Source: Larinioides sclopetarius (taxonomy: Eukaryota). From it: a stretch of DNA of 64,000 nt. The position numbers and the translations under genes are program-made. Numbering within the stretch: the stretch's first letter is position 1; every line of letters begins with the position of its first letter. Positions 21,347 through 31,702 of this stretch are shown in pieces. The DNA lies in the NCBI GenBank assembly GCA_964023285.1, contig CAXIEN010000093.1, forward strand, positions 2,439,739-2,503,738, written 5' to 3'. The notes under the pieces were generated by a model that ran no database searches, was not told the origin of the DNA, and was given only the letters and a program-made list of their open reading frames with translations.

Positions 21347-21523
21347 ATGGCATACAGTGCGCATTTTCATCTCATCCACATTCAAAGATATGCATTCTGA
21401 AAGAGATTTGTTGATTCGATTTGTCATTCCTGAGTTGAGAAAAAGAGCTGCATCAGTGTTTGTTAAAATTAATGAGGTGGATCTTCGTTGGGGCATCACT
21501 GAAACTGACTGTGCTTCTAAACG
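21347..21523 (+). CDS. NWD1: NWD1-like exon carrying the N-terminal half of the DUF4062-like domain (WHTVRIFISSTFKDMHSERDLLIRFVIPELRKRAASVFVKINEVDLRWGITETDCASKR).
   Basis: Motifs R-I-F-I-S-S-T-F ... E-R-D and V-D-L-R-W-G match the N-terminal domain of NWD1 proteins. Acceptor tttcag|a and donor aaacg|gtctgt, end phase 2. Confidence 0.75.
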
Positions 21524-22984
21524 GTCTGTTCTTTTTTTAAAATTATGTAACAAAATTAAATATGTGAAATACCTTGCTGTTTATTTTATAAAAAAAATAC
21601 TTATTTCTATATTTAATAATCTATGCCACACATAAAAGTTATTTAATGTCACAATTAGTTTTTATAAAAACTTAAATCTATCTTATTGTTATTATGCAAT
21701 AATGTTAAGTGTTATCTACTAAGTTCTGAAATGAGAAGCTAAACATGATAGTACATATGTAGTCAACTCATAGCCTGCATTAATTTCAAAGCCAGCTTTG
21801 GAATGATGCTGATGTGCACAATAAATGTGTGCAGCTAGCAAGACGAATGGAGCCATTTATTAACCTTTTCACGTTGGCTCAATATTTTGAAAACGACATC
21901 GGCTGGGGGTTCTTTCAAAACGAGTCTTTCTTGAGGGGGTGAGGAAAATTTTACCACAGGGTTAGAGTAGAGGGGTGGCAAAGGTCATTATGTAAAGTGG
22001 GGTGTGATAAAAGGGAGCGCCTTCTGTTAATAGCTGAACCTTCAGGACTCTCTTTAAAAGTACACCAGTTTGGGAAACTAAAGCTTCTTTGACTGAGTTT
22101 CATTCTCAAACTGGTGTTTTAAAATCCATTTTGTAATCTCATTTTATCCAAAAAAAAATGAATAGTAACAACCTTTTCGGAATATTTTAAGGAATTACTA
22201 AGATTTTATCACTGCCTTTTTGAATTTAGTTAGCAAAGAAGGTAGTACTCTCAACAAAATCTGCACTTGTCTAGAATTTCAAAATTTTGTGAAGAAAAAA
22301 AAATAAGTTGTCATTATAATGTTTCTATAAAACCCCCCTGAAAATTTTACCCAATCACAACAAGTACTGTTTTCAAAGAAACGGTTCCAAAGCCCATGAG
22401 TACCGTTGAAAACTATTACGCAAGGTCTCACTAATAAATTCATTTGGCGATTTTTGACATGTGGTGTTTTTGTTTAGAACCTTTGATTTGATTCATTTTA
22501 ATGTGATTTAGTATAGAGAGGTAATGAATAGTGATTTAGCCGAATAACCGAATATTCGATAACAGAATATCTGCTTTTTAGAAACATTACAATTTTGATG
22601 GCTGATAAAATATCTCACAAATCATAACTTTAAAAATTAGGGTAATTAAAATGATTTTTTATTGATTTATAAAACATTAAGATCTTGATGTAATTTTGTA
22701 GTATAATTTTAGAACTTTGAACCTAATAATAAGATGATGTTGCTTTTGCAAATCTAAAGGAATTATAATAGTGAAATTTCATCTACGTATTTATCTATAT
22801 AATATTAAATTATATTTTAAAACTTTTATTTTTTTGAAAATTTTTTAAAACCTAAAAAAAGTAATAAAAACATATTTGTCATCCTTTATGTTTTTCACTT
22901 AACGATGACAAGTTTGTTTTATTTAAGTCAGAACTTTGAGTCTCATTTCCATTAAAATATATTAAATCTTCTTCGTGTGTACTT

Positions 22985-23120
22985 ACCACTGATTTCAATC
23001 ATTATTTCTTTTTCTTTAACTCATCTTCTGCGGGAGATGTCATCCTCGTCATCTGACCATGGTGCAAAATTACGAGGCCCGTCTCTAAAAAGCCCTCGTG
23101 TTGCTTCAAAATGGGACGTT
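22985..23120 (+). repeat. Partial copy of the SINE-like repeat seen at 4466-4700.
   Basis: Sequence similarity to the reverse complement of 4466-4560. Confidence 0.4.
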
Positions 23121-23592
23121 AATATAATATCTTCTGCGGGTACTTTCTTATATATGTGACTTATAAACCACAACCACAGTTTAAGAATTTAAATTTACTT
23201 AACCTGATAATGCTTATTCTTCCATTAAAACTGAATAAATTTAAAGTATTTTTTTAAAAAAAATAATTATATTAAGTTGCAATTCTTCAATATTCTTTTG
23301 ATAAATATATATTTAAAAAATATAATCCTGAATTTATTCGTTGGACTATATATTTAACATTCAGAAAAATTGTTCTAATACCATAATTGCAGGCTTTACA
23401 AAGATAAGTTACATTTCAAGTTATGAAATACTTTCCGTGCTCCGTAACATAAACCCGAGTCAATATATATATATAATGAAAGGTAGGCAATGAAATAAAA
23501 TTCTGATTTTTGTTTGTTATTTAAAAGTATGTTTTATTTTTTAAAAATTATCTGAAATATTTAGTTTAGCATTTGTGCAGCCGAATACTCAC

Positions 23593-28286: not shown

Positions 28287-28770
28287 TTTCTTTTCTTTTT
28301 ATCCCTTAAGAGTAGTGCATGGCGTATAGAGTATGCTAATTGTGGGAAAGTGCCAATGCAGCAATTATTAATTAACAATTTTTTGGAATCCCCCCTAACC
28401 TACCACTCATCCTCTCCCAATATGTGGATGCCAGAGGCAAAGGTCATCTGTGGGTCAGTCTCTCATTATATATCAATTAGTTAGCAGAAATTTGGTTTTG
28501 GCATGCTATGTATGCTACCAGTATATTTATGTTTTGTTTCAGACAACACGAAATTGTTCTTTCCTGTTGCTACCTTTTAGTTTTTCTAGAACTTTCTGTT
28601 AAAGAAGGGTGTGTGTGGCTATAGTATTGTATTGGATAATGTTTATAAGGACCATATCGAAAAAAATTATAAATAAAACTCTGAAAACAAAGTCAATGAT
28701 ATGTTCAAGTTATAAATAATTTACCAGATAATGATTTAGATGCTAATGAATCTAATTATTTAAAAAAAAA

Positions 28771-30241
28771 CAGGGTGACAGAACTGGAAAATCAGAGATT
28801 TCAGTTAAAAGTCAAAGAATTTCGTAAATATACTTAAAAATCAACAAGAACTGCCAATAAGAGCATCTTGCCCCAAGCATTTGCTCGGTCGGTAATTCAT
28901 TTGAATTGTAATAGGCAGACATTTATGTGTTTCTTGCGTTCTTATCCGTAAATTACTATCTAATGTCTAGCATTATTTGAAATAATAAATGGAATGTAAA
29001 AAGACTATTACTGTAAAATGTTACATCTTTTTCGTTCTATAATCTAAACCTTTCATTCCCTTCTAAAAATCCTAACTTTTATCTAACAAATCAGCAACAA
29101 ACAACTTTATCTAACAACAGCAGAAAACAGTGGTAAGTGACAGGGGATGGACGAGATTTAACTATGTGTGCAACGATATGATATTTGAAATGAATCACAA
29201 ATTTACAATTTTATTAAGTTGATACATTCTTTTCTAACATTTAATGTTACAAAAAAATGTTAAACGATTCCAACATTTATATAGTTTATCATTGTTATAA
29301 TTAAATCTCTTCCAATTTATATATTTTATTGTCTATATGCCAACGGGTACTTTGAGTTCTGCTGTAGTCAGCGGAACCAAAAGAAAACATGTGACTCTAT
29401 TGAATCAATCTGATCAAAAAGCTGAAAAACTGATAAAGGGATTCACTTGAAATAAAAATTTTTATACAAATGTGTAGAACTACTAAGAAATTATAATAAT
29501 TATGTTTATAAATCAAAGAAAAGAATCAATAAATTTCTTTAAAATTTAAATTGAATTATGTGCTTTATGATGTTTAATTCACATTTAATAATAAAAAGAT
29601 CCAAGATCTCTAGAATTACCCCAAATCTGGAATTGCCAAAGTCCCAAAGATTCCAAATTTGTGAAGTTTGACTGTATTTATAAAACCATTGAGTGTTGAT
29701 TAGAGCAATTGATTTCTTATGATTTATTAAAGAATAAAGATTTGAAGTGATATTTTGTCGGTTTTCTCTTATAAAATATACTAAAATATATATTATTAGG
29801 CACATATATTTATACTGCAACATGTTATTCTCATACTCATGCAAAGAGTTCTGATGGAATATACAACTGTTTAAAAGTTTTGAGCATGGTTCTTAATAAT
29901 CTTTACTTTTAACATAATTTGTGTTACAAAGAGTAGTCATTAATGTTTTGTAAAATTCTTATACAATTTTAGAAGCAAAGTATTTTATTTTCATTTTTTA
30001 AAAAAATATTAGTAATGTAATATACTGTTTTGATAATTTTTGAGGACCTTCATTCAATTTTTTGAAAATTAAATTTTAAATATATATATGTAATATTTAA
30101 ATAACCAGTAAGTCTTTTAAGTCTTTTTAATAATGTATATTGTGCATATACAATGATTCTGATTAGGAGAAAAACAGGAAACTGATATAATCAGTAGCCA
30201 TAAATCAGGGAAATTTTCTTCAAAGTTTCTGTAATCACCCT
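28771..30241. mobile_element. MITE family A copy carrying a nested insertion of MITE family B.
   Basis: Termini cagggtgacagaactgg... / ...ctgtaatcaccct. About 700 bp longer than the 56606 copy, and the extra segment (about 29005-29675) is homologous to the MITE B copies. Confidence 0.6.
29005..29675. mobile_element. MITE family B copy nested inside the MITE A copy (approximate bounds).
   Basis: Homologous to 37177-37852 and 49385-49977 (e.g. ...tttcattcc...atctaacaaat.agc...gttgatacattct...tttataaatcaaagaaa...). Confidence 0.5.
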
Positions 30242-31462
30242 AAATTAAGATTGTGTAAGGTTAAAAAAATCGAAAAAAAAATGAAAATATAAATAATAAA
30301 TAATCTTCATTAAAAAGTGCATTTTTTAAGTTCTCTGGTAAAAATACGTTTGGAAAACTTTCAGCATTGTGCAAAAACTGTGATTATATGTACAATAAAT
30401 TCTTCTAAAGAATAATTATCGAGCAGACGTCTATAAGATTACCAAAATATTTATACGATTTATTTATTTCTTATGAATATAAATTTATAACTTAGGAGAA
30501 ATAGATATTGAATAAACAAAATGAGTGAAATTATGGGGATTGAAATTATGGCATTCGTTGGTATTGTTTATCTCTAAGGGAGCAAAAGATTGTCAAAACT
30601 AAAGTTTGGGAACCTATTTTATGACATTCACTGTGGGAAACTGAGATACTTACTCAATCAATGATTAACGAGGTGGCATACTGAGTGCCCCGCCCATGCT
30701 TTATTGTTGTGAATGAAATCTGTGTCTCTATGGGTTAACGATATTTTCTACTGTGGCTTTGATATTGAAAAACCATGTTTTTCACAATGTTTTTAGATAA
30801 CTGAATATTATTAACTTTTTTTGGAAATAGCATAAATATAAACTTCTCTTTTTTTAAAAGAGATATTTTGCATGTAAAGAAAACTAATAGGTAGTTGATT
30901 ATAGCTTATGGCTTTAAAAATGTAAGTGTCGTGAAAATAAATTATTTGAAGTAACCAAATTTTTCCTACAGTGAAATCAAATCATTTAAAACATGTGCAG
31001 ACACCCTCTGTATTTGTATAAAGATTGTTACAAAAGAGTCAGCATGCTTTTGAGTGCATCATGTAATCTATTTTGTGCAATCCTATGCAATATATTATTT
31101 TTGAAGTTTAGGAATGCTGCCAGGATTTGCCTGATGGGATTCCAGTTTCCCTTGACAATGGGTGGGGGCTGATTTGGGGGGGGGCATGATCAGGGGTCAT
31201 GACCTACTGTGATGAGTGTGATGAAATTGGTATCACATTTTCACCAGATTATTATTTATCAACTACATTTGAATATTCCATACAAAAAATTTTAACAATA
31301 GGGGGGGGGGCAAGCATCCCCAGTCCCCTCTCTGGTGCCACCCCGTTGGAGTTGGAAAAATAGTCATCTGAATAGCTTTTGATACCTCAGATATCATGCA
31401 ATGTTTTTGTTTATTTTTTGTATTATGCTGTTCATAGCTTACGTTCGTAAATTTTTTTATAG

Positions 31463-31702
31463 TGCTGCTGAATTGTGTCTTCTAGAAGCTCAAAAATCTG
31501 ATTTATTCATCGGCATCTTGGGTGAGAGATATGGTACAATATTTAACTATGACCCTCCAGATTCTCCAGAGCTTCAGTGGGTTAAGGATTATCCTCGAGG
31601 CTTATCAATAACTGAACTTGAAATGCATGCTGGAGCTCTCAGAGCAGACAAGTTATTGAAGAAGAAGGCATTCTTCTACATCCGAAATAGCACTTGCATG
31701 AG
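31463..31702 (+). CDS. NWD1: NWD1-like exon carrying the C-terminal half of the DUF4062-like domain (AAELCLLEAQKSDLFIGILGERYGTIFNYDPPDSPELQWVKDYPRGLSITELEMHAGALRADKLLKKKAFFYIRNSTCMR).
   Basis: ELCLxE...DLFIGILGERYG matches the DUF4062/NWD1 'LGNRYG' region. Acceptor ttttttatag|t gives an exact phase-2 join (..ASK-R-AAELCL). Donor catgag|gtaact. The ORF-track start further upstream is hydrophobic, intronic-looking read-through. Confidence 0.7.

Follow-up and report, generated by a model that had tools for sequence, protein, structure and literature searches.

An interrupted DUF4062 domain

We analysed a stretch of 64,000 nucleotides of the orb-weaver (araneid) spider Larinioides sclopetarius (contig CAXIEN010000093.1, positions 2,439,739 to 2,503,738 of the forward strand; hereafter the window). 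It is AT-rich (about 30% G+C) and intron-rich, and its plus strand holds most of a gene which we assign to TEP1 (telomerase protein component 1), a STAND protein associated with vaults and with telomerase. Two plus-strand exons of this gene, 21347-21523 and 31463-31702, encode the two halves of a DUF4062 domain and are separated by a long intron. Taken together, the data make it very probable that the gene is the TEP1 orthologue, that these consecutive exons are spliced into one DUF4062 domain, and that the intron between them is old and was lengthened by transposons.

Exon 21347-21523, preceded by the acceptor tttcag|A, begins with the base that finishes a Lys codon started in exon 19458-19613. 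Its protein is WHTVRIFISSTFKDMHSERDLLIRFVIPELRKRAASVFVKINEVDLRWGITETDCASK, after which the bases CG are left over before the donor ACG|GTCTGT at 21524. On the other side of the intron the acceptor ttttttatAG|T (AG at 31461-31462) is followed by T GCT GCT GAA. The intron (21524-31462; 9,939 bp, GT..AG, phase 2) splits an Arg codon as CG|T. The product of exon 31463-31702 is (R)AAELCLLEAQKSD...NSTCM, its start also being written (R)AAELCLLEAQKSDLFIGILGERYGTIFNYDPPDSPELQWVKDYPRGLSITELEMHAGALRADKLLKKKAFFYIRNSTCM, and the exon closes with AG in front of GTAACT at 31703. Its last codon is AG|T, a Ser whose T comes from exon 33530-33643; an Arg at this position, obtained when the open reading frame (ORF) is read through, is wrong. 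The joining of the two exons in exact phase across an intron of about 9.9 kb had been proposed in an earlier note made from the sequence alone; both the join and its coordinates are right, well past what chance would give.

The joined exons match the Pfam family DUF4062 (PF13271) over profile positions 1-79 of 82, with 56.4 bits for a cut-off of 24.7 and an expect value (E) of 3.4e-15, the halves by themselves reaching 1e-5 to 1e-6. The first exon alone scores 25.6 bits (profile positions 1-23) and the second alone 28.8 bits (positions 44-79). Since the halves hit separate parts of the profile and the joined run scores higher, the match extends over both exons, and the claim of a contiguous DUF4062 built from two exons is upheld. 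Uninterrupted homologues of bacterial and metagenomic origin, as well as eukaryotic orthologues, are collinear across the junction without insertion or deletion, e.g. VDLRWGITEREASEDKVLEICLEEIDKCKPFFIGLLGERYGW. By tblastn, the window contains no other segment resembling DUF4062. Exon 21347-21523 supplies strand A, helix A, strand B and the start of the BB loop, and exon 31463-31702 the second half of the domain.

The earlier note called this domain uncharacterised, which is no longer the case: DUF4062 is described as a TIR-like NAD-cleaving enzyme (NADase), also named NIR, in two preprints of 2026 (bioRxiv 10.64898/2026.05.01.722283 and 10.64898/2026.09.04.749371). These preprints present DUF4062/NIR as used in bacterial anti-phage systems. 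In human TEP1 the domain hydrolyses NAD+ and NADP+ by means of Glu1008, the products being ADP-ribose and nicotinamide, with R908, R954 and R976 at the active site. NWD1, NWD2 and NPHP3 are inactive in the same assay, and activity is demonstrated for human TEP1 and bacterial homologues only (2026 preprints).

The joined spider domain matches the PDB chain 11gz_A (“Telomerase protein component 1”, the crystal of the human TEP1 TIR) with an E of 3.7e-36. In the alignment to this chain an offset of 893 brings each of the four human residues onto the letter it should have, and human R908, R954, R976 and E1008 correspond to spider K13, R59, R81 and E112 respectively. The catalytic Glu is thus kept as E112, in the motif SITELEM of exon 31463-31702. 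This second exon also encodes R81; K13 comes from the first exon, and the split codon, R59, is shared between the two. The active site therefore needs both exons. By these residues the spider domain is a predicted NADase. The AlphaFold2 model of the domain (pLDDT, the predicted local distance difference test, 83.7) has five strands alternating with helices. A TIR-like fold is supported indirectly by the strong match to the solved human chain, and the guess of a TIR-like effector fold beside a STAND NTPase is to this extent supported.

Identity of the gene

The best database match is the “Telomerase protein component 1” of Araneus ventricosus (E 9.6e-233, 92% protein identity). This model carries the same ...ASKR|AAELC... 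junction; it reads ...DCASKRAAELCLLEAQ... and contains exactly ...TETDCASKRAAELCLLEAQKSD.... The A. ventricosus annotation was built from cDNA-seq mapping and BRAKER (PMC6557832), and constitutes transcript support for the junction that is indirect only. The next named matches are TEP1 or TEP1-like proteins of Lingula, Branchiostoma, the barnacle Amphibalanus and the copepod Eurytemora.

When the three exons upstream of 21347-21523 are joined, they match Pfam DUF5920 (PF19334, vWA-like) at positions 108-201 of 203, with an E of 2.7e-5. The DUF5920 segment precedes DUF4062 in the TEP1 proteins of Lingula and Branchiostoma and aligns to the barnacle model too. The homologue P0079 contains TROVE, DUF5920 and DUF4062 in one protein, DUF5920 coming after TROVE. 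Downstream, a hand-assembled draft matches NACHT (28.4 bits, cut-off 26.7), AAA_22 (35.6 bits) and NPHP3_N (27.1 bits), and the Walker A motif GNPGSGKT is present in exon 35172-35354. The same draft matches WD40 (PF00400, 48 bits) and several beta-propeller families over its residues 890-1130; Beta-prop_TEP1_2nd reaches 26.4 bits for a cut-off of 89, on a draft model that is incomplete. Because DUF5920 lies upstream, NACHT and WD40 lie downstream and the gene is orthologous to TEP1, DUF4062 is internal to the protein. It is not the N-terminal module of a new innate-immune or conflict-system sensor, as had been put forward in the earlier note.

Several observations weigh against the assignment or against the junction. 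The match to DUF5920 is partial and its 24.3 bits fall just short of the cut-off of 27, as the window holds no more than the C-terminal half of the segment. TROVE, the definer of full-length TEP1, was not found by Pfam in the plus-strand ORFs of positions 1-3,700, and with Lingula, Branchiostoma and P0079 queries limited to their N-terminal parts tblastn returned nothing upstream of 3449 at E<=0.01; TROVE and the start of the gene are probably upstream of the window. The donor ACG|GTCTGT fits the consensus at six of nine positions. Two further AGs are in phase and open; with them the second exon would begin at 31391 (24 additional hydrophobic residues) or at 31529 (22 residues fewer). The junction 21523|31463 rests on homology, conservation and splice consensus, from which splicing in vivo at this place is predicted. 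In the active site human R908 is a Lys in the spider, Lys being also the family consensus at this position. Finally, a Foldseek search of the model against the PDB gave weak matches: the top ones are TIR-STING and nucleoside 2'-deoxyribosyltransferases, with a best E of 2.9e-3 and template-modelling (TM) scores of 0.42-0.48, and the list also mixes in caspase, flavodoxin-like and lumazine synthase folds. These matches agree with the fold and do not decide it.

Could the gene be a lineage-specific NLR-like immune or conflict sensor of the NWD1/NWD2/NPHP3 type, with DUF4062 as its N-terminal effector, rather than TEP1? NWD1 and NWD2 do share the DUF4062-NACHT-WD40 architecture, an NWD2-like mollusc protein is among the matches, and TROVE is not seen in the window. 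But the NWD2-like protein matches far lower (3e-31) than those named TEP1 (1e-233 to 1e-111), and the three upstream exons, besides matching DUF5920, align to a TEP1-specific segment (FIAERSSGGQLTYVENID...) of Araneus, Lingula, Branchiostoma and the barnacle. Moreover P0079 unites TROVE with DUF5920 and DUF4062, and in Branchiostoma the model directly upstream of the homologous locus is TROVE. We therefore regard a sensor of this type as quite improbable and keep the assignment to TEP1.

Age of the intron

Three of the other species compared have an intron that interrupts this codon in the same phase. In A. ventricosus it measures 3,264 bp (L002, 10300-13563; acceptor tatag|c), in the spider Trichonephila clavipes 7,842 bp (L001, BMAU01005471.1, 12931-20772; aaacg|gtac...tttag|t) and in the brachiopod Lingula anatina 322 bp (L003, 3196-3517; codon AA|G, Lys). 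In Branchiostoma (L004, Branchiostoma floridae CM022888.1) it is absent at this codon. The Arg codon split in L. sclopetarius, R59, is the one that aligns with human TEP1 R954. Since the site is shared while the lengths differ (0.3-9.9 kb), the position of the intron predates the spider-brachiopod split and its length is lineage-specific. For the study of intron evolution, its presence in spiders and a brachiopod and its absence in amphioxus add one observation of minor weight.

The annotations of TEP1 in other genomes are broken up. In T. clavipes TEP1 is split exactly at the intron into two models (L001 10001-12964, and from 19714 onward); the first, P0003, reads past the donor as ...ASKR|YFFAFDVYIC, and models annotated inside the intron carry the Tc1/mariner-type domains HTH_Tnp_Tc3_2 and DDE_3. 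The TEP1 of amphioxus is distributed over three adjacent models, one with TROVE, one with DUF5920 and DUF4062 and one with NACHT and WD40. The short database proteins P0005, P0024 and P0026, which come from other assemblies, are single DUF4062 exons read through into intron, P0026 for instance ending ...RWGITQSDADFHR|YVSLIY at the same codon, a hint that further species have an intron at this position. Long spider introns laden with transposable elements (TEs) are an annotation pitfall, since automated gene models come apart at them; those of Araneus and Branchiostoma are fragments. Homology of a domain across exons is a reliable route for the repair of such models.

Insertions in the intron

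The intron of the window aligns collinearly with that of A. ventricosus except for four blocks present in the window only, which amount to 6,831 bp or 69% of its length. The first block (21864-24011) is a non-autonomous piggyBac-like element, TTAA|CCTTTTCACG...CGAAAAGG|TTAA, with a terminal inverted repeat (I20). The empty site in A. ventricosus is a single TTAA, and Pfam found no transposase domain in the block.

The second block (26008-27164) consists of one copy of a 0.87-kb repeat (26002-26896) and a partial copy (26979-27171). In the third (27447-30734), which is composite, the 0.87-kb repeat appears for a second time (27441-28289) and is followed by an element (28801-29002 and 29676-30220) broken by another repeat (29261-29681). 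Copies of the element occur elsewhere in the window at 6681-7370 and 56677-57293, and copies of the interrupting repeat at 37438-37852 and 49612-49928. As two repeat segments that adjoin one another at other places in the window are here parted by a third repeat, a nested insertion is indicated. The fourth block (31108-31345) is a 238-bp insertion between TTGAAGT and TTGGAGT, possibly a 7-bp target duplication.

The repeat of about 0.87 kb is interspersed in the window, with copies at 10003-10887, 26002-26896, 27441-28289 and 50647-51513 that are 68-77% identical and have sharp ends. It carries the 14-nt motif ACTTTCTTGTATAG near its 5' end, inverted as CTATACAAGAAAGT near its 3' end. An attempt to classify this repeat and the 238-bp insertion yielded only their boundaries, the inverted 14-nt motif and the possible 7-bp duplication.

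All the insertions are intronic and keep a distance of over 100 nt to the splice sites. With the nested repeats of the four blocks, the previous figure of “at least 6 TE insertions” is a fair count. Pfam detected no domain in the intron ORFs of at least 40 aa on either strand, so neither an autonomous TE nor an antisense gene is supported; the antisense gene suspected earlier had no Pfam, Rfam or tRNA match. The length of the intron is a by-product of transposon insertions and nothing inside it looks functional. A function gained by the TE-filled intron, be it an internal promoter or cryptic exon yielding a TEP1 isoform deprived of the first half of the NADase (a dead or regulatory form), or an antisense transcript modulating TEP1, is in our opinion very improbable. 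Long TE-filled introns within a conserved domain are routine for spider genomes.

Conservation around the junction

Compared with A. ventricosus, exon 21347-21523 is 96.6% identical at the DNA level and exon 31463-31702 is 95.4% identical. The 80-nt flanks are less conserved: 78% past the donor, 76% (75.6%) before the acceptor and 79% past the second exon. The hydrophobic ORF extension found upstream of 31463, MFLFIFCIMLFIAYVRKFFYS (MFLFIF...), lies in the DNA before the acceptor, and with 76% identity for the 80 nt before the acceptor, as against 95-97% for the exons, it evolves as intron. Its ATG is missing in Araneus, and its Trichonephila counterpart is interrupted by stops, in frame within 11 codons. 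The extension had been taken for non-coding read-through, a view that these comparisons confirm.

The same comparisons bear on the possibility of a decaying pseudogene, in which transposon insertions would have broken the domain and the halves would no longer be spliced together. It could be invoked because the intron has three times the length of its counterpart in the closest relative available, inserted repeats accounting for about 6.8 kb, and because the donor is only moderately consensus-like. However, both exons are open and conserved at 95-97% where the adjacent intron is at 76-79%, the GT, the AG and the polypyrimidine tract are intact, and the neighbouring mapped exons are all open and of compatible phases. 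In Trichonephila an intron of 7.8 kb is tolerated at this position, and in the window the insertions stay within the intron, away from the splice sites. A pseudogene is thus extremely improbable, and we retain a TEP1 gene whose two exons would be spliced across the intron.

The acceptor at 31461-31462 had been presented as the only one restoring the frame. This does not strictly hold, as in-phase AGs would also open the exon at 31391 or at 31529; these two candidates were dismissed on homology and conservation, which single out 31463, and not on frame. An additional exon or pseudo-exon within the intron was likewise rejected, because the homologues contain nothing between ...ASKR and AAELC.... 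The remaining variant, in which the second exon starts earlier, either from the acceptor 31389-31390 (24 more residues) or from a promoter with the ATG at 31401 giving an isoform without the first half of the domain, has for it a frame open from 31383 and an in-phase AG with 12 pyrimidines out of 20 upstream, but its probability is practically negligible, the extension having no counterpart in any homologue, diverging at the intron rate, with no ATG in A. ventricosus and with early stops in Trichonephila; an isoform begun there would moreover be devoid of strands A and B of the fold.

Comparison with known proteins

The order of the DUF5920 segment, DUF4062, NACHT and WD40 is the same in the spider gene as in human and Araneus TEP1. 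The gene also has 92% protein identity to the Araneus model and an identical exon junction, and of the active-site residues of human TEP1 it keeps the catalytic Glu and two Arg out of three. It differs from TEP1 in that the N-terminal TEP1 repeats and TROVE are not in the window, from human TEP1 by the replacement of R908 by Lys, and by the size of the intron, 9.9 kb here for 3.3 kb in Araneus and none at this codon in Branchiostoma.

The bacterial DUF4062/NIR effectors (Swarozyc, NIR-Avs, Vulcan, Vesta and Evangelion) share with the spider domain the family PF13271, the position of the catalytic Glu and the motifs FISSTF.DM..ER, DLRWG, GxRYG and S.TE.E; in them a fused STAND NTPase often follows the domain. 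In contrast to the spider domain, which is internal to a component of a eukaryotic ribonucleoprotein, the bacterial NIR proteins lack introns, carry the domain N-terminally and function in abortive infection. In the other metazoan proteins NWD1, NWD2, NPHP3 and TTC41 DUF4062 likewise adjoins a NACHT NTPase, and the two NWD proteins also have WD40 repeats, but the proteins of this group are without the TROVE/DUF5920 part and are inactive as NADases in the published assay.

TEP1 is a known protein and the activity of its DUF4062 is published. That a spider TEP1 keeps the catalytic residues of the NADase is expected after the 2026 reports on the DUF4062 of TEP1.

Other exons and features of the window

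The exons were mapped by tblastn of the A. ventricosus TEP1 model P0045, which delimits nine of them in the window: 3449-3604, 12168-12239, 19456-19614, 21345-21548, 31464-31703, 33525-33644, 34930-35046, 35172-35354 and 36145-36300. All those described here are on the plus strand. The first (3449-3604, ends approximate) belongs to the DUF5920 region and corresponds to P0045 residues 3-54 with 90% identity. The second (12168-12239, 5' end approximate) has the donor AA|GTAAGT and corresponds to residues 52-75 with 87.5% identity. The third, refined to 19458-19613, encodes FIAERSSGGQLTYVENIDIKYDL...VPK and ends the DUF5920 region. After the two DUF4062 exons comes 33530-33643, next to 31463-31702, with the product (S)LIPENCKRHFESEDPESKQKVEALKSKIRSSGLKLYDG. 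The exons 34930-35046, 35172-35354 and 36145-36300 (ends approximate) lead into NACHT and are 90-95% identical to P0045. The rest of NACHT, the helical part and the WD40 exons extend over 37903-59380; they are hand-picked ORF segments of unrefined boundaries. Within this part, tblastn of the Lingula TEP1-like protein P0046 matches 38646-39238.

Over the whole window, Rfam at gathering threshold and ARAGORN gave no non-coding RNA and no tRNA; neither vault RNA nor any other Rfam family was found in the window. In the intron between exons 12168-12239 and 19458-19613, the minus strand of positions 14950-18020 contains a degenerate long terminal repeat (LTR) retrotransposon of Ty1/copia type, with RVT_2 across three frame-shifted ORFs, an integrase SH3-like domain, Pol_BBD and a copia-type gag. 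The block 44000-45200 is richer in G+C (0.36, for about 0.29) and has long overlapping ORFs on both strands. Two of its minus-strand ORFs had no match in Pfam; the block may be a decayed transposon.

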